NCBI RefSeq assembly: GCF_028641065.1
Contig: NC_073380.1
Coordinates: 60,946,001 to 61,010,000, forward strand
Source of the DNA: Leucoraja erinacea
Lineage: Eukaryota
Direction of reading: 5' to 3'
Length of the DNA stretch: 64,000 nt
Shown here: piece by piece, positions 19,479-62,762 of the stretch
Position numbering within the stretch: the stretch's first letter is position 1
Layout of the letters: each line of letters starts with the position of its first letter
Translations under genes and position numbers: made by a program
The notes under the pieces: generated by a model
The model's database searches: none
What the model was told of the DNA's origin: nothing
What the model saw: only the letters and a program-made list of their open reading frames with translations

Positions 19479-20827
19479 AGATAAAGAGTTCCCAGGGTAC
19501 TCGGCATTTCTGTTATTTGTGCGAGTGACTTGTCCGTCTCCTGAGCTTTCTTGAATGAACATTGAATCTTGAATGAACATTGTGAACTGTCAAGTGTAGT
19601 TAAATCATCACGTGGCACAAATGATGTGACTTTTTTTTCCACACACTATAAATATCCTCTCTTGGTTGAAATGGCTCATTTGGAGACATGCCTGTACTAA
19701 TGCTGTGACTTTACTGCAGGAAGATGCCACATTACTTAGAGAGGGGGAGAGACAGAGAGAGAGGCACAGAGGCAGTGTGATGTACTTCGGGGTGACTGGC
19801 GGAAGAGAAAGAGCGCACATGACCTTGGTCTATGTGTGTGTGGGAGCGAAGAGAGACTAAGCAGAATACATCGGTCTTATTGTGTGTGGGGGGGGGGGAG
19901 AGAAGAGAGAGGAGGGGGGGGGGGGAGAAAGAGAGGGGTGGGGAAAGAGAGGGGGGGGGAGAGAGAGAAATGAGGGGAGACATATATACACACACAAAGC
20001 AGAGTTTTACTGTGTATGTGGGAGACACAGATGGACTGAGCACACTACCTCGGTCTTACTGTGTGTGGGAGAGGGGGAGAAAGAGACGTACACTCACAGA
20101 GGCAGAGTCTCTCAGCCTGTGTGAGAGGGAGGGAGGAGAGAGAGGCACACACAAGGTGGATGTGAAATCTCACCTGCCTGTTTCAGTGACAGACACCCGC
20201 CGCCAGTAAATGAAGACACCCCCATCTGTCTCCCCCTCCTCTCCCTCGACTCCCCCACCTTTCCTTCCCAACTCCAGTCCCGTCCCGACCCCCTGGGAAA
20301 CTGAATGGAGCAACAATTAACTGCTGCCTGCCCACTGAGTTAAAGAGTTCCCACGGTAGTAAGACGATGTTAATTGCGCCCAAGTTTAAATTTCCAACGT
20401 GTGTTTCAGAGTAAAGAGTCAGCGCAGAATCCTTGATAATCAAAAACTGTCTGAATCAGCAAGTTAGACACAAAATGCTGGAGTAACTCAGCGGGCCAAG
20501 CAGCATCTCTGGAGAAAAGGAATAGATTCCATTTTTGGTCGGGACCCTTCTTCGGGATGATTGTAGGGGGGAACTGGAAGCAAGAAAAGACCGGGACAAA
20601 TCAGGGCCAACAACAGATGACCTCAGCAGGGTATTTTGAAGAGGGGTCCCGACCCGAAATGTAGCCTAACCCTTTCCTCCAGAGATGCTGCCTGACCCAC
20701 TGAGTCACTCCAGCACTTTATGTCTATATTTGGTTCCCTGATAGGCCAATTGTTGGCTAGGGATAGTGTGATCCCAAGAGGGAACCATCGTTGCAAACCT
20801 TGGACTGGTGAACCAACATTTACTGCA

Positions 20828-23800: not shown

Positions 23801-26800
23801 CGATTCAGTGCAACTTCTGGGCTTTAGCTGATGCTAACATGCACCTAAAGAAAGCTGGCCAACAAGAAGATCCAGTAATTGGGTCAGTGGTAAGGCAAAC
23901 TTGGTTGTGAGGAGACTTGATAGAAGTTTATAAAATTATTTGATGCATAAATAGGGTAGACAGTCAGAGCCGTGTAAAAGACTAGAGAACATAGCTTTAA
24001 GGTGAGAGAGGTAAAGTTTAAAGGAGATGTGCAGGGCAATTTGTTTTAATTTACACAGTGGTGGGTGCCTGGAATGCACGTGTGATTGTTAAATTCTCTT
24101 GTCCATTTCCCAGTTGATCTATATCATGTTGAAACCTCAGATAACCTTTGTCACTGTTCAGTATACTCCCACACTACAGCAGTTCAGATTAGGAGATTTA
24201 TCCTTACAGAAATCTTGTCACTACCAAAAAACTCAGATATGGACTAAAAATCACCCTTCAAATTTGTGGTTGAGGGGGAGGGGGAATTAGAAAATAAGGC
24301 AAAATATATACAGCAAACTTTACCAAGGACAGTGATCACAGGCTCTCTGTTCATAGCAAGAGGCCTAACAGATTACTTAACAGATTGCTATTGATTTGGA
24401 AATTAAAAGACACGGCTCTTCTGCCCATACAATCTCTTCTATTGATCGCACCACATATCTGCATCTCCACCTATAAAATGCAATAGGAATATTGAAACAA
24501 TATTCAACAAGTTTTTCATTAAAAGGTATATTTGACAAATATGTGAATCATGTGCGCATGCTCTTCTGCCATACAATACAATCGCGGGAATTACCTTGCA
24601 TGTTTTGATCGCACCACATCAGCCATGTTTGCCAGGGAATGCATCTCCACCTATAAAATAGCATTCAATAGGAATATTGAAAATTCAATAGAAAACAGGG
24701 TTTACATTCCAGGGCACAACACCTCTGTAACAAGGTAGTTGTGCCCTGTAGCACAATTTGTTTTATGCCATTCGCAAACTATCCATACATGCCACTTCTT
24801 GATAACACTAATCGAGAACTTCCTCTGTCAGCTCCGTTGCTTCACCTAACTGGAATTTCTTATCCAAACTTCTATTGGTCTAAATGACAATATATGTATG
24901 ACCAAGCAGTTTTGGCTATTGGTATCTCCTGAGGCTCCAGTGCTGCGACGGTCATCAAGTAGAAACAGGGATTGATGGTAATTCACCAGACAGAGGTGCG
25001 CAAAGGACATTTCTAGTGTTGTGCACAGGACATTTCGGGAGTGTGTCTAAAGAATTGCGGGGAAAAAGCCTGCAGATGCTGGTTCATACCACAGGTAGAC
25101 AAAATGCTGGAGTAACTCCACAGATCAGACAGCATCTATGGTGAAAATAGATAGGTGACGTTTCACGTCAGACCTCTTCAGACTGAAGAACTCTCCAGCA
25201 TTTTGTGTCTATCTGAGATGAAGTTAGTGTTGGAAATCCCTATGTACTTGCAAGCATGTTACTTTGGGCCTGTTGCAACTACATTTTGAGATTGAAATGA
25301 GATTATATGGGCATAAAATAAATATCTGCTTATATCTAATACAATTTTCTTTGTTTAACAATGCAATGATTTTTTTTTGGTTTCCATAATTCAGGATGTC
25401 AGTTCAGTACCAGCTAATCTGGCTGATGGCTTTGGTCTAATGAGATTATATGGGCATAAAATAAATACCTGCTTATATCTAATACAATTTTCTTTGTTTA
25501 ACAATGCAATGATTTTTTTTTGGTTTCCATAATTCAGGATCTCAGTTCAGTACCAGCTAATCTGGCTGATGGCTTTGGTCTAATGATTTACTGCAATGAA
25601 TCTTCCAATTACAATTCTCCCATGCATCTAATACTGCATAAACTGAATGAAGCTATGCACCAAAGCAAACATCTTTATCCAGCACTACAGCAGTTTACAA
25701 CACAAGACTATGAAGAGGTAAAAATGAGAAGTTAGTCAAGTTGGTCAAATAGAGAAAAAATGTAAGCCTGGCTACTCCACGTATATTTAAAATCGTTTAG
25801 TTTATTGTCACGTGTACAGTCGTACATTGAAAAGCTTTTTTGTTGCAAGCTATGCAGTTAACGAAAATTACAATGATTACATAGAAACATAGAAAATAGG
25901 TGCAGGAGTAGGCCCTTCGAGCCTGCACCGCCATTCGATATGATCATGGCTGATCATCCAACTCGGTATCCTGTACCTGCCTTCTCTCCATACCCCCTGA
26001 TCCCTTTAGCCACAAGGGCCACATCTAACTCCCTCATAATTACAATCAAGTGTGTACAGATGTAGTGTACAGATACAGGATAAGGGAAAGATGCTTAGTG
26101 CATGATAAAGTCCAGTAAAGTCTGATAAAAGAGTGCAAAGGTATCTAATTAAGTAGATTGTAGGTCAGGACTGCTTTCTAGTTGGTGATAGGAAGACTTT
26201 CTGTTTCATAACAGCTGGGAAGAAACTGTCCATGAATCTGAAGGTATGAAGACAGTCAGAAAAATTCCTACCAAGGGTCGACAGATGCTGCTACCATGAA
26301 AGTGTTTCTTATTTTCTGTTTACATTTCAAATCTGTGAAAATTACTTTGAAAATTTGTAAATGTATAAAATGTGGCCAGGTATTGTAAATTAATAACAAA
26401 AATTGTTAAGATCATTCTGCGCCAACTTTGGAGTCTGAACAAATTGAATATAGGTTGAATATTATAAATGTAAAAACTAAGGTACAAAACAAAAGAACAC
26501 CAATTTTACAGCTTTGCAATCCAAACTGGTTGGCATCAGGTTAGTAATATTTGTTACAAACAGCTCATCTTCGGCAGGCATCTTGAAAAGGACTGCGATG
26601 ATTAGTTTTTGTTCTTTTCAAATAGAAATGATGAATTTTCTCCAGCATTTTTGTGTATGAACATTGAATTCTCCCAATTTTGTTAGTCCTTGCTGTCTCC
26701 TCCCCTTCCTCAGCCCCCGGGCTATCAGCCTTCCTCAGCCTTCGGGCTCCTCCTCCTTTTTCCTTTCTTCTCCCCGACCCCCCCCCACCAGTTTGAAGAA

Positions 26801-35450: not shown

Positions 35451-37641
35451 GGACTGCAGTGGAATCAGTCAAGGGAATCAGGATTGGGGACTGGGCATGA
35501 AAGGGAATGACAGCCAAAGATCTTACATAATGACAGTGGTAGACCAAATGGCTGATTTCTCTTCATTAATCAGTTCAAAGACCATAAACTTGGCATTTTG
35601 GTATCGGTTTATTAGTGGATTGATATTTTATTTTTAGATGTCTGCTCCTTAAGTGCTTATGATAAAGGGCCTGCTATTGGTATATGTTAATTATTTATCA
35701 CTCCACAATAAAATTGTATGATTCACTAATGTTGATTAAGTTGTGAAAAGAGAGGTAAATTAATCCCAAAATTATTGGCATCTCAAAGGGGAAAATACTA
35801 GCTTATCAAAGTATTTACTGAATTAAAAACTAACTAATCAGTGGTGGGATGAGAGGTTTAAAACACAGGATGTTAAAGGCTACTTACATATTTAGTACTG
35901 CTCTGGGATTATAATTTTGATGCATCTTGAAACATTTTGTAACCACACTACTAATACCACATTACCACAACTAATACCACAATATTTTAAAATTATGAGA
36001 CATCTAGAGGGTGAAAATTAGTACAATTTATCTAGAAGACATCTAGAGACGGTGAAGAGGAAGAACAATTTTTCTAGAAGAAATCTAGGGACGGTAATTA
36101 GAAGAAAGTTAGAACAGTGCAGCAGAAGAACAGGTCTTTCAGCTCACAATGTCTGTGCCAAACCTGATGCCAAGACTATCCCCCATCGGCCTGAACGTAA
36201 TAGATATCCCTCCATTCCCTGTGTAGTAGCCATTTAGTTTAACTCAGTATGTTATAACTATAACCAGTTACCTTTAAATTTTATCTGCCTGTAATTATGT
36301 GGGTGTGATTTATACGTAATCTGAGGCGTGTTTGCGACTGGGATTCTGGCGCAGAGGAGTTTAGTTGAGTAGGAATGTGCTCTTTTCATTAGAGGTTTGA
36401 TGTGACTTGGTCCAGTGGAAAAAAATGGACATGATGGAGGGATGGAAAGTAACTGCCCGGAAACATACAAAATACATTGAGAACCCATGCTTGCAGAAAT
36501 CTTTGAAAGAAAGGCGAGACATTTGCATACTGCAAAATTTGTAGGCTTCACATTAGCATTACATGTGGTGGAAACAATTACATTAAAAAACACACTGAAA
36601 AGATAAAGCACATTGAAAATGCTGAGACAGTTTCAATGTCGCGCCCGCTAGCTTTAAGGTTGCCTCTCGCTCAGTCAGAAGACTTCAGTGTTGTAAGAGT
36701 TGAAGTAATGTTCTCAGATTTTCCCTAATGTTTCCTGACAGCAAGATCGCACAAAAGTACTCCTGCGCTAGGACAAAGACAAAACATATTCTCAAATCTT
36801 TGGCTAATGAAGATGCCAGAAATCTAGCTCAAAGTATGAAACAAAGTGTCTTCAGTGTTGCCACGGATGGGAGCACAGATATGGATGCTGTAAAGCTGTA
36901 CCCAGTTCTGGTCAAAACATTCGACAACAATGTTGGACAAGTTAAAGTCAACCCGCTGTCTGTAATGGAATGCTCTGAACGTTCCACGGCATTCAAAGTT
37001 TTCAATATTCTGAATGAAGAACTGGCATCATGGGGAATCCCCTGGTCGAAATGTGTAAGCTTCGCTACAGACAATGCCACCGTCATGGTCGGAAAGCACA
37101 ATGGTGTAGCCACCCACATACGAGCACAGAATTCAAATGTGTACATTATGGGATGTCCTTGACATCTGATGCACATTTCTGCCCAGAGAGGAGCAAAATG
37201 TCTTAGCTACCAAATCGATGATCTGCTTGTGGTGACTATCTCGTCAAAAGTCAGCTAAGGCACCAAGCCGTCATTCAGCTCCAACAGGAACATGGGGTGG
37301 AAATACAGAAGCATGTGTCAACACGGTGAGTACATTTGTTCTGTTTTTTAAGAAAAACGTAGAATGTAGAAATTTAATCTTACCAAACTTGGTTTAGTGC
37401 CATGTTGGTTATGTGGACAATGTTAGATACTTAGACTCTACACCTATTTTAAATTTTCATTATTTCCTTGATTTAGTCATTTTTATTTTTTTTTTACACA
37501 TTTAGGTGGTTATCACTACACAAAGCAGTCTGTCGTCTTCTTGACAACTAGGGTCCACTGGAGGACTTTTTCAAGAATGAAAACGAGAACAAGTCTAAGA
37601 GAAAGGCTGAACCTGATGCAACCTTTCCAAGGAAGAAGAGT

Positions 37642-37767
37642 AAGAGTACAAGTTCAAGCACACAGCCAAAGACTGCAACCTCTACCTTGCGCAAGAGTAC
37701 AAATTCAAGCACACAGCCAAAGACTGCAACTTCTACCTTGCCCAAGAGCACAAGTTCAAGCACACAG
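37642..37767 (+). repeat. 51-bp tandem repeat (~2.5 copies) within the transposase
   Basis: aagag(t/c)acaa(g/a)ttcaagcacacagc... at 37642, 37693 and 37744 (KSTSSSTQPKTATSTL). Confidence 0.85.
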
Positions 37768-38056
37768 CTTAAGCAGTTTGACCTTTTGCGATATTTATAT
37801 CGTAAGGACGAGCTGACCAAACAGCATGGAGGGGCTGAGGAAATAGAGAAAACAATTGTTAAACCAAAGACTAGCAGCGTCAACCAAAAAGACCGGTGGG
37901 AGTCAAAGCACAACACATGCACAACAACCATCAAATCCTCAACCGAAGTCACGTTTGATACATCAGCAGCTGAGTGACCCAAACTGTAAACTGTTTTTGA
38001 AGGCAGCGATACCATTCTTTGAGCATCCAAACCAGGTTAGTTGACATGTAGAGTAA

Positions 38057-38551
38057 AGGGCCTGTCCCACGAGCATGCGACTCCACGCGGCAAGCGCAAC
38101 CTAACGTGGCCGCTTGAGCCGTACGGCCTCGTGGGGCCGGTACCACTTCGATCGCCGGAGCCGTATGGAGTTGTGCGGAGCTGGTCCCGACATAGCGTGG
38201 GGCTCCGAAAAACTGACCGTGTTCAAAAATTCCGCACGGCAACGGCCTGCCGGCCCGCAGCCGCCTCGACGCCGTACGCACTGCCTCGACAGGCGCACGC
38301 AGCTTCTCGACGCAGTACACAGCGTCTTGACGCCATACGCAGCTTCTTGACGCTGTACATCACGCGCGGACTTCGCTCGAACTTCACGCCACTCACTCGA
38401 CCTCCGCGCGCCCCCCGCTTCCGGTTTGGTCGTGCTCGCCGCATGCAGGTGGGACCGGCCCTGTACGGGAATCACTCGACCTCCGCGCGGCCCCCGCTTC
38501 GGGTTTGGTCGCACTTGCCGCATGCAAGTCGCATGCTCGTGGGACAGGCAT
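38057..38551. mobile_element. Harbinger-like MITE inside the second transposase intron
   Basis: Perfect 23-bp TIR gcctgtcccacgagcatgcgact / agtcgcatgctcgtgggacaggc; preceded by TAA; CpG-rich interior with internal direct repeat. Confidence 0.8.
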
Positions 38552-39629
38552 TGTTTTTATTGTTGATGCTAATGATTTTTTATTGTTACGGGATTTTATT
38601 ATTTTGTTTGATATCACTTAATTTATTGTTTATGTGCATGTTTATAAAATTAATATTTTAAACATTACTTATTGATGCATGCTTTTGATCAAAATGTTAT
38701 TTTTGTTGACTCATGCTTTAACTAATCCCATATTGTATGATTGACATACAATGTACATTTGTTTTAATTTGTTTTCAGTTGTACATTGTTTAAGTTAGAT
38801 CATTGATCCTTTACATTCTCATTTGCATGTGACAGGTACTGCAGAGGGATGAACCCCAAATACACAACATTCATCACATCTTGCTGAGCCAACTGGCTAC
38901 TCTGCTGACAAAGTTCATAAAACCAGGTGCAATTGCCTTTAAAGTGATGTGAGAAAACTGGACGAATGACAAATCAATCCACAAAGAACAGTGACATCCA
39001 AATTGGATATGTCAAGCTTTCCTCAATGAAAACAAGGACAAACTCGACACAGCAGGTTTCTACAAAAGTGTAAAGAAATTCTACACAGCAGCTGCAACAT
39101 ACATTATCCTTTTCATGATGAGCTCCTTGTCAACTCCACAGTTGTAGATATCAAAGACGGGTTGAATGTGAAGTTTGAGTTTGTAGAGTACTTTGTCAAG
39201 CACTTTGGTCTAGTTCAATCTGAATGTATGGATTAGCTTCAGTCAGAGTTCAATCTCTATCAGATCGACAGAGACATCCACTACAAGATGGCGTGCGCAT
39301 TGACAGGCAGTGGCATGAAATTGGGGAAATGGAAGACATGATATCCAGGAAGAAGAAGTACCCACTTATAACCACAGAGATGAAATCAGTGCTGGTCATC
39401 TTTCATAGCAACACGGACTGTGAACATGTATTCAGTATTGTGGGCAAAAACAAAATAAAGAGCCTCCATGAACACTGAAACAGTGAGCTCATTAATTACA
39501 CAGATTGGCGTTGGCAAGCAGCAATCAGACCTGTTATTCAACATCATATGCCAATGATGTTCTCAGAAGATGCAAGAAGGCTACATATGAGGCCCTCAAA
39601 GCTGGAAAGAGAACCAGTTATTTTGTTTA

Positions 39630-40115: not shown

Positions 40116-41840
40116 CCTCAGTTCTTTAGTTTAGTATGGTCAGCAATATCCACAGATGCTATTTCATTTTGTTTCTTTAATTAAATTAATCAAATACATG
40201 TGTCAAAAAAAACTTGTTTCACTACTTTAAAAAACCCTTAAAATCCTGGAGCTACGGCGGGCCCCTGGACCCCACCGGGCGCTCACACTCCGTCACTCAT
40301 TTTTCATTTTCAAATGTTGGCAGGTATGCAATTAAGAATTTGCTCATTCCTGATTATTATGTTTTGCCCTGCAATCGAATTAGGGTTATAAAAAAGGAAA
40401 ATTGAGATATCCTAACTTTACGAAAGCAGTTTGCTTATGTCTCATTCATGCACTATCGCACAGGTTACCCACAGATGAGGAGATGTACATTGGGTTATTC
40501 AGCACTGCTTTCTGTAACAAACATTCCCTGCTTCTGTGTTCAGTCAGGCTGTCGCTATAGCAATCATCAGGGCACAGGTAACGGCATCTGGTGCAAGCGT
40601 GCTGCTAACCGTTAGTGCAATACAGCTCATCAAAAATCAATATTTGGTACTCAATGAATGTTAAAACAATTTCTCAAGGGAAACCTCTAATTCACATACA
40701 GATGTGGTTTCTGCCATGCTGGATGATTTACATTTTTTAATATCTGGATGACATTCCTTAGAAAGAATACTTATGCAGCAGCCAACATTAACTTGTTTGA
40801 AGCTATGATCGAGCAAATTGAATTTACTCTGAGATTACGACTTCATTTTAAAAGTGTCAGAACCTGCTCCAATATGTCAGCTAGTTTCATTTGATCAAAG
40901 ATTTAAATTAGTACCCAATGTCTAAATTTGCATTTCATCACTAATCTTCGAGGATACTTCCCTTGCATTGTAAGCATTTCCCACCTCCAACACTATAAAA
41001 AAAGTTAATGTATTAGATAAGTGTTATTGACAGTTAATTTAAGACTTTGGAAAGTAATCTTTAATCTATTCAATCCATCTTTAATTTGAAATGTAGTTAT
41101 AATATCTGACAAGAAATTCAATTACATTGCACTGTTTTGCCTCATATAGACTGCTTTACTATCTAACAAGTTACAAAAGGAACTGATCCTCATTCAATCA
41201 ATGAACATCCCACATTTTTGATTCAGAAAAGATCAATTGACTGAAGACTCTGATGCTGCACCCTGCAAATAATGCAGTATGAAATCGACAGTCATTAGGC
41301 CAAGAAATGGGGAAAAAATAAACCATGTTGATCCCTTCCCAATCAACCGAAAATCAAAAAATAATTCTTACTAAGCAAATGAGTACAGACAAATAAAATC
41401 CACTCATTTGTACACTCAATAAACAAAGTCTTCTTCAGATTACAATCTTATCTACAAAATGTCATGAACTCACCAGCACGAGAAATGATTTTTTCATCGC
41501 GTCCTCATTTCCACCAATGAGGACTTGCACTTGTTAATAAATAGCAATACAGCACCTACAGAATAGAGACAATCCATCAAATGTATCCTATCTAAAGGAC
41601 TGTGTGACATAATGCCCATACAAATTAAGGCTTGTATTCCAACACTGCAAATATATCTTTAGTTCAATTTGGAGAAATTGGTCGTATATCCGTAGCTGTC
41701 ACTTCCAGAGATTCATGGGTTAAGCAGATTATTCTCATTTAATTTTAAATACACTATGTACTGAATGGAGACTATCAATAACTTATTACACAATTTGACC
41801 CATTTTAGCTTAAAAATATATTTTGAGTTACGAGGTTTAA

Positions 41841-41923
41841 TGCTGGAAACTCAGAGTTAATAAGGTTTCCTCATCACATTATCGGATGGGTAAACGGCAT
41901 TGGTAGTCATCATGGTTCCAGCA
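41841..41923 (-). ncRNA. SNORD87: Box C/D snoRNA SNORD87 (U87), copy A
   Basis: Minus strand: 8-bp terminal stem TGCTGGAA/TTCCAGCA; box C ATGATGA; guide TGCCGTTTACCCA complementary to 28S rRNA GGGUAAACGGC; D' CCGA; C' GTGATGA; box D CTGA. Confidence 0.92.
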
Positions 41924-44362
41924 AAAACTTAATCTAACTCAACTAACTACTTTTAATACATTAAATTTTATAAAAATCATTTAAACACCAGTTTAGGACA
42001 TTCCCCAATAGAATTCTTTGTCAACTAACTTTTACAAATCACAATAAATAAACACATAATTTTTACCTTCATATTCTTCAAAACGGGCACAACAGTAGAT
42101 ATCAACATCCAATCCATTCATGTTGCATTTCTTATGGTTTGTAAGACGTCTGTTGAAAATATCTGCCATGCCCAATAGGTAATATTGACAAAGAAAATAA
42201 TCAATCCATTATTTTAATTTCCCAAGTTAACACAAACAGATTCAAACTTTTCTCTTCAGATGCTGATTTTCTATCTATTAAAATCTGAAAAATAGATTTT
42301 CTATCTACTTGTTTTCCATCACATTATATTATATTACTTATTCTTTTCAACACCAAATTATTTGGATACATTATACCAAGAAGAAAAATGAGCTTAAAAA
42401 GTGCTTTACGAACAGTTTGTGGACCAGCTTGAGAAGGTCATACAAAGATCAAAATATTCAACTGTGATGTTCACAGAGCAGTTTTGCCTACTTTATTTGT
42501 GTAATTCTGTGATGAAATTGGCAAGACTGGATCTACCATATGTTTTTGTAACTCCCAGCATTTACCTCACAGGTGTGATATCTGCAGCCTGCTTTTAAAG
42601 TAACATTCTCCCAGCTATAGAATGAATCCATAATGATTGGGCTGGGGAAAGGGGGAAGAAAGTTCACCAATGATGACATGGATAGGCAGGAAGAACAGTA
42701 CCCATGGGAACAATGTTTAAGAGACGGGGAGGGCAAAGCAAACCTACACCCACCAGCAGGCACGCTAGACAAGAAAAATGTTTCTAGAAACAAACTTATT
42801 CTTATTGGATCACACTTTAAAAGTAGCAGGTTATAAACAATTCCATATAACTCTCAGAATACAAGTACTAGTGATGCCAGCTCAAAGTATAGAATGCAGG
42901 AATTAAGTTGATGGACTAAAAAAAAGATATTGAATACACAGTATAAAGTGGTGAATAAAGGAAGGGAAGATGAGTTACATCATTGCTTATCAAAGCTTGA
43001 AAAAGCTGGTGAAAATTAACTACAGATGAAGAAAGAAACTTTACAATCTTAGATTAAATAATGAAATAACTTAGAATAGCAATCAACAAAATGCTCCTCA
43101 AGTATATAGTTCTCTCCAGAACAAGAAACATATTCTATGGTTGTAAAAGTAATGGATAATAGCCATGAGATTAAATATTGATGTAAAAGATAAAATATAG
43201 AGAACTTTATGCCAAAAAAAGAATCTGTTGGCCATGCAGAACGGGAAAAAGTTAAATATGAAAATTATAGACAAAAGGTTCAAATTAGGCTGTATATTTA
43301 AATTACTTTCTCATACAACTGTATTTATAACAAACAAAATTAAAATTAATTTATTTTCTATCAAAAATAAACATTGATTTGGTTGTGGTCTGAAAGGGGA
43401 TTTACTTAAATAATCTTCCAACCAATAGAAATCTAACCTGTAATATGGCTCACAAAATATGTTTAACGATTAATAATTATGGTATAAGGTTCATAGTTCC
43501 ATTACATAGGAACACATATTCCAACACAACAAATTTGATACATCCACTGTAAGTTCATCTCAAGACTTTTGACTCAAAAAACAGTTTATAATACCGCAGA
43601 GGCAACCAAACAAAGATCCATTGAAATCTCAGCAGAAATAAATCACTGACCATTACTTTTTTCTCTTCTGTAGAGAATAGTGGCATGGTCAGATACACTG
43701 GACAGCTATGAGCATGATGGCCCTGTGGCAAGGGGCAATTTATCATCCAAATTAGAACAAACAGCTGCTACCATGATTTATGATGACACCTTCACTAGCT
43801 AGACTATAAAAGTCGCATGTCTTTTTGTAGACTAATTTATCATTTATGGAGAATTTTTGTGGCAGTGATGAAAATTAGTTTCTACAATCAGCTCTACGTG
43901 GCCATATTTAGGACAGCTCCCCATCTATGAAGTAACAATACGACTTTGACACACTCTACACCCCCCTCCCCCCACCCCAGAACAACCATAACGGGGGAGG
44001 GGGCAGGGGTTGCCTATGACCTGCTTCTCTGTTCAACATCATGGCAATACTTGGCCTCAGAGCTACCTTCCTGTCCAACCCTCACATCTTTCACTTTTTT
44101 ACTAACTGACCCTACCCACAGCAATAAATACTCCAGCCTCAACTATACTTAAAACTCAGTGTCTACACCAAATTGGCTGAAGAATTCCAAAGATTCACAC
44201 TCACAAAAGGTTTTTCATTTGCAACCTCAATGGTGGGTCCCATATCCTGAGCCTCTGAACCCTTGTTCAAAACATTCCACCAGGAGAAATATCTTCTTGC
44301 CACCTACCATGTCAAGTCTCCTCAAATTTTCACACCTATATATTAAAACAGTACACGATAGA

Positions 44363-45108
44363 TAGGCGGCACGACTCTCGTCAGCAGCGGCCTCTGCAGC
44401 CCGTCTGCGTTTTTATTATTTTTTGTCTATGTTTTTATGTAGTTTTTGTTATTTTTTGTTGGGGTGTGTGTGTGGGAGGGAGGGGGTAACTTTTAATCTC
44501 TCCCTGCACGGGAGACCCGACCTTTCTTTGTCGGGTCTCCGTTGTCGTTGGGGCTGCAACGAGGAGCGCCTCCAACAGGAAGACCGGGGGCTCTGGTGCC
44601 GACGACTCACCTCACCGTCGGGGAGCTGGCCGAGTCCAGAGCGGGTGGAGCGGTGGTGGAGTGCTGCTGCGGCCCGACCTCCGGAGATTCGGAGATGCAA
44701 CTGGATGGATACCGCTTTTCAGGGCTCCCGCAACGGCGACTTCTGCCGCCCGAGTTGCGGGGTCGAAGAGCTCCTGGAGCGGGGCCTCACAGCACCGCCC
44801 CGCGCGGCTTGGAATGGCCGCGGGACTCTGCGAGCGCACGCCGGGGGCTCCAACATCAAGAACCCGGTGTGCGACCTTGCACCACCCAGCGTGGCTTTAA
44901 TGGCCGCGGGACAATTGCCATCGCCAGTCGGGGGCTTTGACTTTGACATCTGGGGGGGGGGGGGGGGGGGGGGAAAGAGTGCAGTGGAGAGATAAGTTTT
45001 TTGGCCTTCCATCACAACAATGTGATGGATGTTTATGTAAATTATGTTGTGTCTTGGGTCTATTTGTTTGTAATGTATGGCTGCAGAAACGTCATTTCGT
45101 TTGGACCT
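44363..45108 (+). mobile_element. Unclassified GC-rich SINE-like interspersed repeat
   Basis: CpG-rich body; its 3' part (ttttggccttccatcaca...gatgtttatg) resembles repeats at ~1960-2140 and ~54225-54395. Confidence 0.55.
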
Positions 45109-45109
45109 C

Positions 45110-45452
45110 CCTGGCTTGCTGGATTCCCTTAGTGTAAGTAGAACGTGCAAGTGTGAAGTCGTGCTTGCAATGTAGTTAATAAAGTCTTTGGATCTTTATC
45201 TTGGTGCAAGGCTTCTGTTATTGTATGGTCATCACTCAACATGGTGTCAGAGTGTACGGACTTACTCCTCGATTCATTATATTGTTCTTTTATTAGTTTG
45301 TTATTTTTCTACTGTGTACAATGGCTTCTGCTCTCAAGAAACCAGAGATCTTGGTGTTTGATGCAGATCTTACAGAACGATGGCGTGCGTTTGAAGACGA
45401 TTTTTCAATCTACATTGATGCTGCATACCCTACGGCTGATCCTGCTCTTGAC
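45110..45452 (+). mobile_element. Gypsy LTR retrotransposon fragment (LTR end, PBS, gag start)
   Basis: AATAAA...CAACA|TGGTGTCAGA (LTR end + PBS-like), then MASALKKPEILVFDADLTERWRAFEDDF-IYIDAAYP, gag-like with one frameshift. Confidence 0.65.
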
Positions 45453-45495
45453 ACATTTTAGCTTAAAAATATATATTTTGAGTTACGAGGTTTAT

Positions 45496-45578
45496 TGCTG
45501 GAAACTCAGAGTTAATGAGGTTTCCTCATCACATTATCGGATGGGTAAACGGCATTGGTAGTCATCATGGTTCCAGCA
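45496..45578 (-). ncRNA. SNORD87: SNORD87 (U87), copy B
   Basis: Same boxes, guide and stem as copy A; one substitution between C' and D. Confidence 0.9.
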
Positions 45579-46431
45579 GTCAGGTGATTGTGAATTGAAA
45601 AGGATAAACAAGTGATGATGTTTCCATACAATTGCTGCCCTTGTCACTTGACATGGTGGATGTTACAGCTCGAGAAGTACTATAAAAAAAACTTAAGTGA
45701 CTGGGTGACTGCAGACCATCATGTAGATGCTGCATATGAAACAGTGAGCAGGGCAGAAGGAGTGAACATTCAAGGTGATCTGTGGGCTGCCAATCAAACA
45801 GATTGTATTGCATTGAATGAGGGAGATGATTGTTGCAGCTGTACTCATTTAAGCATGTAGAATGTGTTCCGCTACATTGCTCTCCAACACCTTATTGTTA
45901 GTGGAAAGTCAAAGGTGAATCTTTGAATGTAGAAAATCCAATGCCTGGTATGTTCAGTGCCATGGTAATTATGTATCTAGTTTGTGATCAATGATGAAAC
46001 CCAAGATGTTGCCAATGGAGGATTTGGCAATCACAATGTCATCAAATAGCAATAGAGGTGGAAGATTACCTGTGTTGGGGATGGCCGATGCTTTCTTCAA
46101 CTTCTCAAATGTTATTTAGATCTTTACAGCCAAGCCCCAATGTTGTTCAGGTTTGTAAAAGGCATGTACTGCTCATCCACTGTGGAGAAAATAGAAATGG
46201 TCATTACTCTGATCATTCATGTTTCTAACGTAAAGATGAAGCCATTAAAGATGATTGGGCCTGTGACACTGCTCTGTGGGATCCCTGCCACAATCACAGA
46301 AATGAGAATAGCCTGCAACAGCTATCTGACTTTGAACATATAACCATATAACAATTACAGCACGGAAACAGGCCATCTCGGCCCTACAAGTCCATGCCGA
46401 ACAATATATAATTTTGAGTTACGAGGTTTAT

Positions 46432-46514
46432 TGCTGGAAACTCAGAGTTAATGAGGTTTCCTCATCACATTATCGGATGGGTAAACGGCATTGGTAGTCA
46501 TCATGGTTCCAGCA
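46432..46514 (-). ncRNA. SNORD87: SNORD87 (U87), copy C
   Basis: Identical to copy B. Confidence 0.88.
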
Positions 46515-47302
46515 GTCAGGTGATTGTGAATTGAAAAGGATAAACAAGTGATGATGTTTCCATACAATTGCTGCCCTTGTCACTTGACATGGTGGATGTT
46601 ACAGCTCGAGAAGTACTATAAAAAAAACTTAAGTGACTGGGTGACTGCAGACCATCATGTAGATGCTGCCTATGAAACAGTGAGCAGGGCAGAAGGAGTG
46701 AACATTCAAGGCGATCTGTGGGCTGCCAATCAAACAGATTGTATTGCATTGAATGAGGGAGATGATTGTTGCAGCTGAACTCATTTAAGCATGTAGAATG
46801 TGTTCCGCTACATTGCTCTCCAACACCTTATTGTTAGCGGAAAGTCAAAGGTGAATCTTTGAATGTAGAAAATCCAATGCCTGGTATGTTCAGTGCTATG
46901 GTAATTATGTATCTAGTTTGTGATCAATGATGAAACCCAAGATGTTGCCAATGGAGGATTTGGCAATCACAATGTCATCAAATAGCAATAGAGGTGGAAG
47001 ATTACCTGTGTTGGGGATGGCCGATGCCTTCTTCAACTTCTCAAATGTTATTTAGATCTTTACAGCCAAGCCCCAATGTTGTTCAGGTTTGTAAAAGGCA
47101 TGTACTGCTCATCCACTGTGGAGAAAATAGAAATGGTCATTACTCTGATCATTCATGTTTCTAACGTAAAGATGAAGCCATTAAAGATGATTGGGCCTGT
47201 GACACTGCTCTGTGGGATCCCTGCCACAATCACAGAAATGAGAATAGCCTGCAACAGCTATCTGACTTTGTACAATATATAATTTTGAGTTACGAGGTTT
47301 AT

Positions 47303-47385
47303 TGCTGGAAACTCAGAGTTAATGAGGTTTCCTCATCACATTATCGGATGGGTAAACGGCATTGGTAGTCATCATGGTTCCAGCA
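47303..47385 (-). ncRNA. SNORD87: SNORD87 (U87), copy D
   Basis: Identical to copy B. Confidence 0.88.
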
Positions 47386-49954
47386 GTCAGGTGATTGTGA
47401 ATTGAAAAGGATAAACAAGTGATGATGTTTCCATACAATTGCTGCCCTTGTCACTTGACATGGTGGATGTTACAACTCGAGAAGTACTATAAAAAAAACT
47501 TAAGTGACTGGGTGACTGCAGACCATCATGTAGATGCTGCATATGAAACAGTGAGCAGGGCAGAAGGAGTGAACATTCAAGGTGATCTGTGGGCTGCCAA
47601 TCAAACAGATTGTATTGCATTGAATGAGGGAGATGATTGTTGCAGCTGTACTCATTTAAGCATGTAGAATGTGTTCCGCTACATTGCTCTCCAACACCTT
47701 ATTGTTAGTGGAAAGTCAAAGGTGAATCTTTGAATGTAGAAAATCCAATGCCTGGTATGTTCAGTGCCATGGTAATTATGTATCTAGTTTGTGATCAATG
47801 ATGAAACCCAAGATGTTGCCAATGGAGGATTTGGCAATCACAATGTCATCAAATAGCAATAGAGGTGGAAGATTACCTGTGTTGGGGATGGCCGATGCCT
47901 TCTTCAACTTCTCAAATGTTATTTAGATCTTTACAGCCAAGCCCCAATGTTGTTCAGGTTTGTAAAAGGCATGTACTGCTCATCCACTGTGGAGAAAATA
48001 GAAATGGTCATTACTCTGATCATTCATGTTTCTAACGTAAAGATGAAGCCATTAAAGATGATTGGGCCTGTGACACTGCTCTGTGGGATCCCTGCCACAA
48101 TCACAGAAATGAGAATAGCCTGCAACAGCAATCTGACTTTGTACAATATATAATTCTACCAGTTGATTTATCTTCCAATATTCCACATCACTGATTCCAG
48201 TAGTCTCCAAACATTACTAGGAATTGTTGTTTCCACACTCAAAACTAGATAGATCAACCTTCTCAACATCAGATTTAGACAGATCAAAGTCAATTCCAGT
48301 AAACCTTGCAAAGTCTTTCCCACGAAGAGCTGATGACTAGAGATACATTATGGAAATGTCCTGACAACAGCCCGACAATCATATTCAAAGAATCATTACC
48401 TTACAGCCAACATTATTGATTCTTCCACCACAATCCTCATGTGCATCTTGTGCTACTAATTGTACAAACAATTGGAAGTGGAAATACAGTGATTATATAA
48501 TCAAGAATGAACAGCCCCAAGAACATTGACGCTGGACCACAAAAAGCAAGCTCAAAACACCAGATTTGTCAAACATGGTTTCTCTATCATGAACTATATC
48601 AATCCCATTATGGTTCTCCATTACTAGATTCCAGCACTTCCCCTAATATTGATGTCAGCCTAAAATATCCCCATTTTTCTCTCCTGTCCCGAGCAGCAGA
48701 ATATTTTCTACCCCCCATTTTGTTTTTTAGAACGGTTCTAGAATTTATGGAATTTCTGAAAATGTTACCAAGGGCATCCACTATCTCTATAGCTAACTTT
48801 AAAACCTTAGGATAGAGGTAATTGGAAACTGGGGATTAATCACTTTTCAGTCACATTAATTTCACATTTTACAATTATTAATTTTTCAGTTTCTGATTCA
48901 CTCCTGCCAGTGATTTCCTACTGTCTACAGTAGGTTCATCTTTTAAATGAATATTTGCTTAATTACTCTGCCAATTCTTTATTCCCCAATTTCTTCTGCC
49001 TCCAAATGTAGACCAATTTAAGTTAGCCATAATGACAAAGACTGCTATTTGGCCCATCAAGTCCATATAAAGCAATGCACACGGTAGACAATTAATTCAC
49101 TTTTGGATGTGAGGGGAAACTGAAGAACCTGGCGGAAACCCATATGGCCATGAGAAGATTGTATAAACTTCAGACAGAACCTGAGCTCAAGATCAGCTCC
49201 CTGGAGCAGCAAAACTAATTGTGCTTCTATGCTAATCTTAAAGTTAATGAAATATTTTTTCATACCTCCAGAAGCTCTTATAATCTGTTTTTATGTTTCT
49301 TGCCACTCTCCTGTCCTCTTTTGCCTTGGCTTTTTCTGAATTCCAATGTTTCCTATTTTTCTCTGGCAAAATAAAACACATTTGCCTTAGATCTAATATG
49401 ACTTTAAATTTATTGATGGTGTCAATCATAAATTATACATTAATTCTTTAAATGTTGGTTATTTACTGCCACAACTTTTAATGTAATTAACTAATCCATT
49501 GTGGCTAACTCGTACCTTTCTTTGTAGTTTGCAGTATTCATTTTAAAGCTCTACTTTCAGACTGAATTAAATCACTTTCTCTTTTAATATAAAACTTGCA
49601 TTTTACTGTGAACGCTGTTCCCTGAAGACATCTTGACCAACTTTCAAATCCTTACCAAATGAGAGAGCAGTCATGACAAAGCACAAACTACAAGCTGAGT
49701 TTCCTCGTTATTAGCAACAGCATGGGATGTCCAAGGGGTGGTATTGTAAGGCATTTAAGAAAGAAAGGATCCGTTTGGAGGAAGTGCAAGTGCAAATCTA
49801 TTATCATAGGAAGATGTAGTGAATGTTGAAAATATGAAATCAAAAAACTGGTATCTCAAATCATGCAACGTAATTTTGTCAAAGAAAACCTGGCTACCCA
49901 GCATTTCCTGTTCTCATTTCAGTTTCCCGCTTTACTTTTGTAAATCTATCCATA

Positions 49955-51417
49955 AACCTGTGCGGACCAACTGGCTGGGGTTTTTACGGACATTATCAAC
50001 CTCTCACTTCTGAGGTCTGAGGTTCAATCATACCGGTCAAGAAGAGCAAGGTAACGTGCCTCGAAAACTATTGACCTGTGGCACTACGTCGGTGGTGATG
50101 AAGTGCTTTGAGAGGTTGATCATGGCGCAAATCAACTCCTACCTCGACAAAAACCTGGACCCACTGCAGTTCGCTTACCGGCACAACAGATCAACGGTGG
50201 ATGCGGTCTCGCTGGCTCTACACTCTCCTCTGGAACACTTGGACAATAAAAACTCATATGTCAGGCTGTTATTCATTAATTACAGCTCGGCATTTAATAC
50301 AATCATCCCCTCCAAGCTGGTTACCAAACTCTCAGAACTGGGTCTCTGCGCATCCCTCTGCAATTGGATCCTCGACTTCCTCATTCACAGACCAGTCTGT
50401 CCGTATTGGTGGAAATTGTCAGCCTCGATAACAATCAGCACGGGAGCACCTCAAGGCTGCGTGCTCAGCCCCCTGCTGTACTCACTCTATACTCATGACT
50501 GCGTAGCTGGTCATAGTGCGAACTCCATCATCAAGTTCGCTGACGACACCACTGTTGTGGGACGTATCACTGATGGGGACGAGTCAGAGAATAGAAGATA
50601 GATTGACCAACTGACCAAATGGTGCCAGCACAATAACCTGGCCCTCAAAACCAGCAAAACCAAGGAACTGTTTGTGGACTTTGGAACAAGTAGGATGGGG
50701 ACCCACAGTCCCGTTTATATCAATGGTTCGATGGTGGAAAGGGTCAAGAGCTTCAAATTCCTGGGCGTGCACATCTCTGAAGATCTCTCCTGGTCTGAGA
50801 AAACTGATGCAATCATAAAGAAAGCACATCAGCGCCTCTACTTCCTGAGAAGATTACAGAGAGTCGATATGTCAAGGACTCTCTCTAACTTCTACAGGTG
50901 CACAGTAGAGAGCACGCTGACCAGTTGCATCGTGGCTTGGTTCGACAACTTGTACGCCCAGGAACGGAAAAGACTACAAAAAGTAGTAAACACTGCCCAG
51001 TCCATCGGCTCTGACCTCCCTACCATCGAGGGGATCTATCGCAGTCGCTGCCTCAAAAAGGCTGGCAGCATCATCAAGGATCCACACCATCGTGGCCACA
51101 CACTCATCTCCCCGCTGCCTTTCGGTAGAAGGTACAGGAGCCTGAAGACTGTAACATCCAGGTTCAGAAACAGCTTCTTCCCCACAGGCTATTGAACTCA
51201 ACGCAAACAAAACTCTGAACATTAATAGCCCATTATCTGTTTATTTGCACTTTATCTGTTTTATTTATTCATGTGTGTATATATTTATACAATGGTATAT
51301 GGACACACTGATCTGTTCTGTATTCATGCCTTCTATATTCCGTTGTGCCGAAGCAAAGCAAGAATTTAATTGTCCTATCTGGGACACATGACAATAAACT
51401 CTCTTGAATCTTGAATC
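49955..51417 (+). mobile_element. Rex1/Babar LINE, 5'-truncated; same family as 3785-6322
   Basis: [54 protein letters not shown]; (cttgaat)n tail. Confidence 0.92.
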
Positions 51418-52099: not shown

Positions 52100-52660
52100 A
52101 TCAACTAGGCTCGGAAGCGACTAAAACGTCTAGAAAGGTCAGCCAGATGATATAAAACGGTTTGAATTTATAAAGAAGAACATTTTCTGCTCGGTGTGAT
52201 AAGGAAGGCAATTGTAGAAAGGATTTAGTTACCGATTCAGCACGTTTTCTCGGTCGTTCTGTTGTGGCCCCGAGGTCTCGGTGCACGAGAAGGCGCCACG
52301 TCAACGTTTTTCTGGCCATGGGAAGATAAGATGCATTAAAGTCTGATCTGTGGGCGACCAGAGGTCGTGTTGGCTGAAAGAGCTCGATGGACGCCGATGC
52401 CGATGCCGATGCCGACCGGGGCACCATTGCCCGCCGCGCGGGAAGGAAGCGGCCGGGTCACCGTTACAAACGCTAACGTTCGCCCGCGTGGTGGAGTCCG
52501 CGAGCATGCGCACAGCTCCAGTCCCAGCCCCAACCCCAACCCCAACCCTAACCATAGCAACAGCCCTAACCCTAGCAACAGCCTCGCCATTGGACCGAGC
52601 GCTAGCGGGAGCGGCGGGCGCACTGCTGTCGTGAATGGTAATGTGGAGAGAGTGGCGTTT
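52100..52660 (-). promoter_or_regulatory. CpG island; candidate promoter/first exon of the snoRNA host gene with a 5'TOP start
   Basis: Minus strand CTTCCTTCCCGCGCGGCGG from 52449; NRF1-like GAGCATGCGC and RFX-like (c)tagcaac upstream; possible donor CG|GTAACT at 52232. Confidence 0.65.
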
Positions 52661-53759: not shown

Positions 53760-55437
53760 TAGAGAATATTGAACACAACCCAGTCGCATCTTCCCATCTC
53801 CACTCCATTCCACTTTCTGTGGAGACCACCCCCTCCACAACTCCATGGTTCACTCATCCATTCCCACCAACCTTCACCATCCCCAGGAACTTACACTGGT
53901 AACCATTGGAGGTGTAAGATCCTTCCCTACAGCTCCTGCCTCACATCCATCCAGGGACCCCAGCCACTATTCCAGTTGAGACTGAGGTTCAGGTGCACCT
54001 TTTCAAACTGTTTCTATTGCATTCAATGCTTCTGGTGTGGCCAAGATATTGGGGAGACCAAGTGCAAACTAGGCAACTGTTTCTTTTTTTTTAAATATAT
54101 TTAATTTTTTTATTTGAAGTATATGCATATCATAATCCAAACCAATACAAACTTTGTTTAACAATTACATATTATCAGTATCTAGGATTCCAGGGACTCA
54201 TCCAAGGAAGAACAAAGGAAGAGACTTGAACTTATTTTGCCTTCCATCACAGTGAGGAATGTGTAGGAGTCACTGTGGTGGATGTTCATGTTAAATATGT
54301 TTTTGAATCTGTTGCTTTTAATTGTATGACTGACCTGGCCAGTGAAATTCCTTGTATGTTGCAAAACATACTTGGCGAATAAAAACTGATTCTGATTTCT
54401 GGGAATAATACAGAAGGTGTAGTTCAGTCCAAAGAGGAAGAAAGATTCCAAGGGGAGTAAGAGGCGACCGTGGCTGACGAGAGAAGTCAGGGACAGTATA
54501 AAAATAAAAGAGAAGTACAACATAGCAAAGGATTGGGTAATGTTTAAAGAGCAACAGAAGATAACTAAAAAGGCATTACGGGGAGAAAAGATGAGGTACG
54601 AAGGTAAGCTAGCCAAGAATATAAAGGAGGATAGTAAAAGCTATAGTGAAAGTAAAAGGTAGTATGTGTAGAGGAAAAAATGAGTTAAGACCAAAGTTGG
54701 ACCCTTGAAGACTGAAAAAGGTGAATTTATTATGGGGAACAAGGAAATGGTAGATGTGTTGAACAGATACCATTTCCTTGTTCCCCATAATAAATTCACC
54801 TTTTTCAGTCTTCAAGGGTCCAACTTTGAAGACTGAAAAAGGTGAATTTATTATGGGGAAGGACATTCTTGCTATTGAGGGAGTGCAGCATAGGTTCACA
54901 AGGCTAATTCCCAGGATGGCAGGACTGTCATATGCTGAGAGAATGGAGTGGCTGGGCTTGTATACTCTGGAATTCAGAAGGATGAGAGGGTATCTTATTG
55001 AAACATATAAGATTGTTAAAGGTTTGGATATGCTAGAGGCAGGAAACATGTTCCCGATGTTGGGGGAGTCCAGAACCAGGGGCCACAGATTAAGAATAAG
55101 GGGTAAGGCATTTAGAACGGAGATGATGAAACACTTTTTCACACAGAGAGTTGTGAATGTGGAATTCTCTGCCTCAGAGAGCGGTGGAGGCTGGTTCTCT
55201 GGATACTTTCAAGAGAAAGCTTGATTGGGCTCTTAAAGATAGCGGAGTCAGGGGATATGGGGAGAAGGCAGGAACGGGTACTGATTGGGGATGATCAGCA
55301 ATGATCACATTGAATGGTGGTGCTGGCTCGAAGGGCCGAATGGCCTACTCTTGCACCTATAGTCTATTGTCTATATTCCACTTAGGTAGCTTACAACCCA
55401 ACTGTATGAATATTGAATTTTCAAACTTCCAAGTAAT
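53760..55437 (+). mobile_element. Penelope-like fragment interrupted by a rearranged CR1 (~54397-55374)
   Basis: Penelope-like IQGPQ..FQ...RFRC....YCIQC...IGETK resumes at ~55376 (ggtagcttacaacccaactgtatgaatattgaattt). The CR1 carries IPRGVR..PWLTRE and C-terminal LYTLEFRRMRG. Confidence 0.75.
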
Positions 55438-60601: not shown

Positions 60602-62762
60602 CTGAAATTCATGAAGGAAGATAAATATTTATAACACTTGCTGGTCCGACTGTTTCATTTTAAAAACATGAACATACAATACAAATCGGCGGTTTAAAAT
60701 CAGAACGCCTGTCAAACGAAACGCTTTTTGTTTTATATATATTGGCCAAGTATTTTGTTTTCACCGATTTTCAGATAAATGTGATACCTGCATGGCCCTC
60801 GACTTCATGCACAACAATTGTGTTTTTGGGAGGCATTGAGATTATTGTTTACATCAGACCAATTCAAATACAAAATTACAATTGAGATATTACCGATTCA
60901 ATGTATTGCAATTACAGTCATCCGTTATATTAGTGTTAAATTATAAAAACATATTGGCGACGTTACTCATTTTGGAAGTTGATTTTTACATATTGGAGCC
61001 GTGTTTCCGAGTAATATTTACAATTTCCCCGATTCAGATATGTGTGGGGAATAAGTACATCTTCAGCAAGGAATCGTCATGATAATTTATGTGTGTGTTT
61101 TTAGCTTAGTCTTTCAGTCGTAATTACTTGAAAACGTCGTTTTATGTTACATGACATTTGTATTTTAAATGATGATTGATGCAAGTGTTATCAGACTGTA
61201 ATTTAAACAATGGTTAGTACTTCCAGTTATACTGCACAAATGGTTGTAATGGATTTAAACTGCTGGACATTAAAGTAGAAGAATAAAGTTACGCACAACA
61301 TTTACCCAGATCAATACAGACCGATAAAATTAAAAAATGTACGACAAAATAATCCCGCAATATTGGAATTGCAACATGTTTTACTATTTCCATTTAGTTT
61401 ACCTTCATTTTTTTTACGCATTAACGTTAACTTCAAACTAAAACTATTCGCAATGGCAAATGGATTGTGTTGAAATTCAAATATATGATCGGTAAGGCAG
61501 GGAATAAATACTTTGGTATTGGATATTAGATTGTCTTCATTTAAAAAAAAAAATTATTTTGTTTTCTCATATATTTTCTGTCCAATTTTCGGCTCGTTTC
61601 TTATTTTAAATTTGGGCGCATCTTAAAACCAGATTTCTGAGAAACGTGAACATTTTAGGGATTGCTACTTTCATTTTGAGCTATTCAAATCTAGGAGTAC
61701 CTTAAAAAAACCGCAGAGTTTGAGTCCATAACTGAAAAAGTCAAAGAATGTCCAGCAATTGATAGATCAAAAACTCTATATTCTGACTTCAGTACTAGCC
61801 AGCAAAAAGTTTAACAAAATTAGTTTTCAATGTGTTGATTTATTGTGGGCAGTTGACAATTTAATTTAAGAAAGCCGAAAAGTGAAACGTGAGTCCTTTT
61901 TAAAAGGTGTGATTCACTTTACACGGGAGTGAGGGAGAATTTTTCTTCTCTAGTTTGCATTTCAAACCATTGGAAATTACGCAGTTTTCCATCTGTGTTC
62001 TGGGTGATTTCATACGTTCGGAATCTGCCAACAATCCTTTTATCAAAACTGCCTGCTCGTCGCACCAATCGCATAGTTGATCATTTAACAAAACGAGATC
62101 ATATATAGTAATAGAGAGAAAATGATTCGATATGTATGTGAATGTATAACATTTCTTGAATTATCGTTTTAAGTGAATGTTAAAATATTGAAGGCTCAAA
62201 GTATGTTTGGAATGTTACACTGTTTATAGAAACAGTCTACAATTGCAATGGATATTTAGAAGGGGCAGATTATTTAAGCGAAACGATTAAAACATATATT
62301 TTCACAATAAAGAGGCATTGTTCCTACTTTGACCGGATGCAGATATCCGTCCACTTTGAGGGAATGCATTAACTCAGCAGATCTTCGACCTTCTCCTTCC
62401 TCCAAACTTTCTTCCAGGGTGCGGGTTAGATGTGCAATATAGGTGGTTGCTAGGATTAGGACATCCAGTTTGGACAGTTTAGTGTCCGGAGGGACTGACG
62501 GTAGAGTTTTTTGCAGCTCTAAGAAAGCATGTCGCAGGGTTTGTACTCGGCTCCGCTCCCGCGCTGCGTTTGCTGCTGCAGGCCTGCCCCTGATGCGAAC
62601 CACTTTCGGGCGAGATTGTAATTCAGAGAGCTTTCGAGTGGGACAGGTTAGAGAATCGGAATCCGGACAGGGGCTGGGACTGGGGCTGGAACCTGGACTA
62701 TCCTCGATTACGGCCTTTGGAACGGCTGCAGAATCCATTGGACTTTTTTTAGGCTGAACCAT
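60491..62762 (-). CDS. TCF24: Transcription factor 24 (bHLH); 2 coding exons, 181 aa
   Basis: [55 protein letters not shown] bHLH, and GYLHPVK|KWPMRSRLY motif split by a phase-0 intron (60602-62327). Position next to SNHG6/MCMDC2 favours TCF24 over TCF23. Confidence 0.92.
62328..62762 (-). CDS. TCF24: TCF24 first coding exon (exon acceptor at 62801)
   Basis: tatttatttttcag| acceptor; ATG at 62762 ([11 protein letters not shown]...); donor AAA|gtagga. Confidence 0.88.

Follow-up and report, generated by a model that had tools for sequence, protein, structure and literature searches.

A 64,000-nucleotide stretch of the Leucoraja erinacea genome (contig NC_073380.1, positions 60,946,001 to 61,010,000, forward strand; hereafter the window) carries four minus-strand copies of SNORD87, a small nucleolar RNA (snoRNA) of the box C/D class, here termed A to D in order of rising coordinate. 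It is probable that A and B are the older copies, that C and D are products of a recent triplication of a unit that includes a host exon, and that each copy occupies one intron. Placement of every SNORD87 copy in an intron of its own is likely because a candidate exon, exon X, is found in each unit and RNA reads fall in its bins. The triplication itself appears as roughly threefold read depth over the unit in a near-identical skate genome. A relative diverged by 2.0% shows single-fold depth and retains copies A and B.

Identity and integrity of the SNORD87 copies

The four copies lie at the following positions.

41842–41922, minus strand: SNORD87 copy A; Rfam RF00439, 48.7 bits, E 2e-7; within a predicted 511-nt intron (42066–41556)
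45497–45577, minus strand: SNORD87 copy B; Rfam RF00439 match; also present in the single-unit relative
46433–46513, minus strand: SNORD87 copy C; Rfam RF00439 match; sequence identical to copy B
47304–47384, minus strand: SNORD87 copy D; Rfam RF00439, 47.4 bits, E 4.3e-7; sequence identical to copy B

Each copy aligns to the whole RF00439 model (1–85 of 85) at 47.4–48.7 bits (E 2e-7 to 4.3e-7), which confirms the four minus-strand SNORD87 copies reported by a first-pass annotation of the window. These scores are slightly below the gathering score of the family, 50, and a scan at that score gave 0 matches across the 64 kb. The 13-nt guide matches the Rfam consensus at 13 of 13 positions, and its spacing to box D′ is likewise identical. 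With up to two mismatches allowed, the guide occurs exactly four times in the window (chance mean 1.09), a count reached by 0 of 100 shuffles. Neither this guide search nor nhmmer revealed a fifth or decayed copy in the window (next match E 0.069, opposite strand), and a metagenome scan with a 27-nt motif returned 0 loci. A segment at 40520–40640 that partly resembles the guide and contains CUGA words was rejected; it has no Rfam SNORD87 match at E ≤10, and its fold is no better than those of shuffles (z +1.33).

Box C (AUGAUGA), box D (CUGA) and box C′ are present in all four copies, and an 8-bp terminal stem forms in the folds of copies A and B. The earlier description of intact boxes, stem and guide stands for these elements but not for box D′, which reads CCGA in all four copies, one base off the CUGA of the Rfam consensus. 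The pairing proposed for the fifth nucleotide upstream of D′ also needs correction: this base had been placed on the last G of the target, but in the target sequence quoted there it opposes the third G of a GGG run. From the guide sequence, copies A–D are predicted to direct the usual 28S rRNA methylation (human G3723 equivalent). As had been noted, one base inside the snoRNA distinguishes A from B–D (41862 versus 45517). With this change, a G-U pair becomes G-C within a short hairpin that overlaps the C′ region.

The 871-bp tandem unit

Copies B, C and D form the ends of three head-to-tail units, for which the following features were recorded.

45466–48155, minus strand: tandem array of three 871-bp units, each a decayed long interspersed element (LINE) piece with candidate exon X, the snoRNA and about 30 nt of 3′ flank
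46337–46400, minus strand: 65-bp insertion present at the C/B junction alone, the tail end of a repeat with very high copy number; the summed contig depth of its bin is in the millions
48027–48107, minus strand: reverse-transcriptase motif remnant, found by tblastn with a reverse-transcriptase open reading frame (ORF) of the window (27 aa, 37%, E 8.5e-4)

The snoRNAs of successive units are spaced by 936 and 871 nt, in line with the earlier estimate of 0.87–0.94 kb. The units are about 99% identical; pairwise comparison over about 860 nt gives 3, 6 and 7 substitutions (0.35–0.81%). By hand count, 0 of 8 substitutions among units fall within the snoRNA, compared with 0.75 expected, and the data provide no support for selection for dosage. 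The reverse-transcriptase remnant shows that the non-snoRNA part of the unit is a decayed LINE. Pfam detected no domain in the two unit ORFs included among nine proteins examined. We take the 65-bp tail repeat to be of the short interspersed element (SINE)/LINE type. A 10–11-nt AT-rich word is common to both ends of the array and the D/C junction.

The flanks of copies C and D were duplicated along with the snoRNA, head to tail and without a poly(A) tail, as expected for cis-duplication by DNA recombination; retroposition is ruled out for these two copies because their flanks were duplicated too. Homology between copies A and B is limited to the snoRNA plus about 50 nt of 3′ flank (41795–41923 versus 45448–45578, 96%) and begins precisely at the 5′ end of the terminal stem. 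Neither a poly(A) tail nor a target-site duplication, the marks of an A-to-B retrocopy, was visible by eye in the printed flanks.

Read depth and the age of the triplication

Four sequencing runs were mapped on 41926–46400, a stretch that holds one unit. Run X1 consists of DNA contigs from a near-identical genome, with 5 differences in 2436 nt of flank, and may represent the source sample; its depth derives from reads and not from the assembly. Run X7 consists of DNA contigs from the relative diverged by 2.0%. Runs X22 (polyA RNA, from the single-unit relative) and X23 (single-cell RNA, with the same species label as X1) were picked by study or species label; a search of sequencing runs had listed no RNA run containing the locus.

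In X1, the unit lies under one contig at depth 77 and the flank under one at 26.8, a ratio of 2.87; the expected ratio for three window-like units after variant collapse is 2.69. Furthermore, the X1 unit contig stops 10 letters beyond 46338, a point from which three continuations would diverge. The local copy gain proposed in the first-pass annotation is thereby supported, and the read-depth check it had suggested, at about threefold in X1, gave no indication of an assembly expansion. In X7, the corresponding depths are 47.1 and 41.5, a ratio of 1.13, and the unit contig extends uninterrupted for about 1850 further letters. Both X1 and X7 contain a joint between 45578 and 41926, which shows that A and B exist in both genomes, and copy B of the relative shows at most one difference over 108 nt. 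Because depth is about threefold in X1 and single-fold in X7, where A and B are present, the triplication is younger than the split between the skate and this relative. Copies A and B thus represent the older state, and the triplication is recent and real.

A candidate exon in each unit

The exons predicted around the snoRNAs are listed below.

46070–46179, minus strand: candidate exon X of unit B (XB), 110 nt; polypyrimidine-AG acceptor and CAG/GTAATC donor; RNA depth of X22 and X23 in its two bins
47006–47115, minus strand: candidate exon X of unit C (XC); splice sites as in unit B
47877–47986, minus strand: candidate exon X of unit D (XD); splice sites as in unit B
42067–42149, minus strand: host exon Y, 83 nt, between copies B and A; splice sites present; RNA depth in X22 and X23 fits reads ending at its donor; in the relative, the exon start lies near 42178
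41474–41555, minus strand: candidate host exon Z, downstream of copy A; proposed from splice-site motifs, outside the read-mapped stretch

The spacers had been described as having no obvious intervening exon, yet every unit contains a 110-nt segment bounded by AG and GT, with splice sites identical across the three units. A pattern scan of unit B gave two acceptor-like and two donor-like sites, of which exon X is the only acceptor-then-donor pair. If every exon X were used, the predicted introns would measure 761, 826, 3920 and 511 nt, and each would contain a single snoRNA.

Outside high-copy repeats, host-strand depth in X22 is confined to the bins of exon Y and exon X, and the read strand agrees with that of the host. 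The X22 bin 45976–46125 holds 112 read-bases, or 2 × 56, which fits both reads ending at the donor at 46070; 91 of 13689 end pairs would yield this value. In X23, 8 reads cover 46092. Depth is zero across 45676–45975 in both RNA runs. X23 also has intronic depth at 42226–42675, i.e. some of its reads are unspliced.

In the proposed mechanism, host pre-mRNA would be transcribed from a CpG-rich start at about 52.4 kb, and splicing in the order XD-XC-XB-Y-Z would produce four introns, each with one snoRNA. Release of the snoRNAs would occur by debranching and trimming, aided by the 8-bp terminal stem, and the released copies would all guide the same 28S methylation. The first duplication may have been microhomology-mediated, with the AT-rich words as its mark, and would have been followed by unequal exchange; the copy gain was presumably near-neutral.

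Weighing the alternatives

Several observations count against a recent triplication with one intron per copy. Contig depth is a rough measure of copy number, and the 15 of 43 joints listed include no unit-to-unit joint and no splice joint for exon X or Y. An X1 joint from 45486 to 46356 (depth 25.2, side 22), the order of which is ambiguous, possibly represents the C/B junction; it was not counted. The RNA reads total about 10, from about 6% of X22 and about 1% of X23 read. Moreover, the two X22 reads come from the single-unit species and may be mates of one fragment, and the exon coordinates were fixed in writing only once the depth table had been seen. The snoRNAs lie 188–3347 nt from the predicted acceptors (copy A, 286 nt), far from the preferred position, which PMC5519232 places upstream of the branch point by about 50 nt. 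Finally, the private base of unit B is found in each of the 8 X23 reads that cover 46092. None of them has the C/D base, which is the base seen in X1, X7 and X22. This pattern could reflect 3′ bias, few molecules, the alleles of the individual, or skipping of XC and XD.

The last of these possibilities is the basis of the strongest competing explanation, which is considered unlikely overall: in a genuine array, splicing would for the most part pass over XD and XC, leaving D and C together in one intron that gives rise either to separate snoRNAs or to a 952-nt snoRNA-ended long non-coding RNA (sno-lncRNA). The unit B base in all 8 X23 reads would have a chance of 1.5e-4 given 8 independent reads and equal use of the units, but of 0.11 if only 2 molecules were sampled. 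In PMC11028025 and PMC4234469, two snoRNAs in one intron are described as yielding sno-lncRNAs, and this outcome is tied to alternative splicing. However, the splice sites of exon X are alike in all three units, and XB is the most 3′ copy, which any 3′-end library would presumably favour (the end bias of X23 is unstated). The X23 individual may also have the unit B base in further units, and the fold of the stretch from D to C is unremarkable (z −0.68). Uneven splicing of the young array, with a SNORD87-capped 952-nt sno-lncRNA as the product of a tandem duplication that postdates divergence from the 2%-diverged skate, is a possible but unlikely outcome.

Less likely still, C and D, or B–D, are passengers that are transcribed in the host pre-mRNA and poorly processed, with A supplying the snoRNA. 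Their distance from the acceptors is compatible with such a role, as is the absence of any sign of selection in the substitution count above. Against this, B has been retained with little change in the 2%-diverged relative, and A itself lies 286 nt from its predicted acceptor. The boxes and stem are also intact in all copies, and external stems can make snoRNA assembly and processing independent of splicing, as reported in PMC5519232.

An assembly error, such as two haplotypes placed in tandem, could draw on the >99% identity of the units, the lack of a unit-to-unit joint among those listed and the spanning of the array by no single contig, but is very improbable given the read-derived X1 ratio, the end of the X1 unit contig at the predicted branch point of three continuations, and the private insertion and substitutions that distinguish the units.

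The triplication with one intron per copy is therefore the preferred explanation. Polycistronic copies, cryptic exons and silent copies had all been offered for B–D; cryptic exons are the best supported, and the other two keep a lower probability for C and D.

Locus and host gene

Three further features define the surroundings of the array.

15973–16269, plus strand: MCMDC2 exon, low-side neighbour; ORF 93% identical to MCMDC2 of Leucoraja erinacea
62277–62735, minus strand: TCF24 exon, high-side neighbour; 82–88% identical to shark and ray TCF24; Pfam HLH
52232–52449, minus strand: candidate first host exon; CpG observed/expected 1.39; starts with a 10-nt pyrimidine run (5′TOP-like) at 52449

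The SNORD87 array is located between MCMDC2 and TCF24, with MCMDC2 on the opposite strand from the snoRNA copies. TCF24 presumably also lies on the other side of human SNHG6. Human SNHG6 is listed as MCMDC2-AS1, an antisense neighbour of MCMDC2, in PMC11603882. The host of copies A–D is likely to be the skate SNHG6/U87HG gene. From its base composition, the CpG-rich stretch with the pyrimidine run at about 52.4 kb is likely to be the host transcription start.

Exon Y may differ between the two species. At 42179, X7 differs by one base, which gives rise to a host-strand AG, and RNA reads of the relative reach 42173 but not 42179. This suggests that exon Y starts 29 nt earlier in the 2%-diverged relative.

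Between copies A and B, both species have a very high-copy element of about 750 bp (44362–45109), which is also abundant in X22 and X23, and a lower-copy repeat (45110–45450) starts where the A/B homology stops. A LINE with a reverse-transcriptase domain occurs in two copies that are 89% identical (4837–6324 and 49954–51416), the second within the predicted first host intron. The region 36200–38700 is likely to be a DNA transposon remnant, with a DUF4371 match (E 3.8e-4) that falls short of the curated cut-off; short tandem repeats rich in GC lie at 38263–38529. Long imperfect palindromes occupy 54692–54828, 21927–22136, 14336–14606 and 20465–20726 (95%, 78%, 70% and 70% self-complementary, respectively). 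Young two-copy tandem duplications, 98% identical, lie inside MCMDC2 at 25296–25586 (143 bp units) and 2882–3015 (66 bp units). Given these two further young duplications within MCMDC2, small tandem duplications are not rare in the region.

Comparison with known systems

The skate copies share their guide, boxes, terminal stem and an MCMDC2 gene on the opposite strand with SNORD87 (U87, HBII-276; RF00439) in SNHG6/U87HG. The target of SNORD87 is reported as human 28S G3723 in PMC3349704 and as Xenopus G2882 in PMC6984369. As in the skate, SNORD87 hosts of Xenopus, zebrafish and chicken carry multiple copies. According to PMC3349704, Xenopus and zebrafish have four SNORD87 genes apiece, chicken has two and human a single one; PMC2653536 describes three chicken copies, in introns 1, 2 and 3 of the host, and the supplement of PMC6984369 places three Xenopus copies 414 and 1304 nt apart. 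The multiple copies had been regarded as a surprise, but on these accounts (PMC3349704, PMC2653536) it is the single human copy that is the exception. Several SNORD87 copies with one per intron is a documented state outside placental mammals, and the preferred explanation holds little surprise in this respect. Among the SNORD87 papers listed, none concerned cartilaginous fish by title, which is not proof of novelty, and the supplements of PMC3349704 may list further copies. The skate differs from known SNORD87 loci in that copies B–D lie in very young, near-identical 871-bp units duplicated with their flanks, in the D′ sequence CCGA, and in a spacer exon that appears to be LINE-derived.

In animals, one snoRNA per intron is the predominant arrangement according to PMC11028025. 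Intragenic cis-duplication is described in PMC2653536 as the main route to new snoRNA copies, and in PMC2817437 as less frequent in mammals. In the cis-duplications of intronic C/D snoRNAs covered by PMC2653536, PMC3845636 and PMC2817437, a new copy arises in the same host by DNA recombination with its guide unchanged, as in the skate. In contrast to those earlier examples, the skate unit is young enough to reveal its breakpoints and a candidate exon travelling with the snoRNA. The value of the locus lies in this clean snapshot of cis-duplication, in which the breakpoints are visible, the candidate exon is co-duplicated and a close relative retains the earlier state.

The SNORD115 and SNORD116 clusters are likewise composed of head-to-tail units, and their non-coding host typically has a single snoRNA in each intron (PMC3845636). 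The skate array differs in having three units and not 24–47, and in encoding a housekeeping guide for rRNA whose target is known; imprinting is not expected. Sno-lncRNAs, formed from two snoRNAs in one intron, are described for human, rhesus and mouse in PMC4234469, and the skate would match them if XC and XD were skipped. If so, the locus would provide a sno-lncRNA in a cartilaginous fish and gain in significance. It would then constitute a natural experiment in which a LINE-derived exon and a small duplication switched a host from one snoRNA per intron to a sno-lncRNA, with the single-unit relative as the control.

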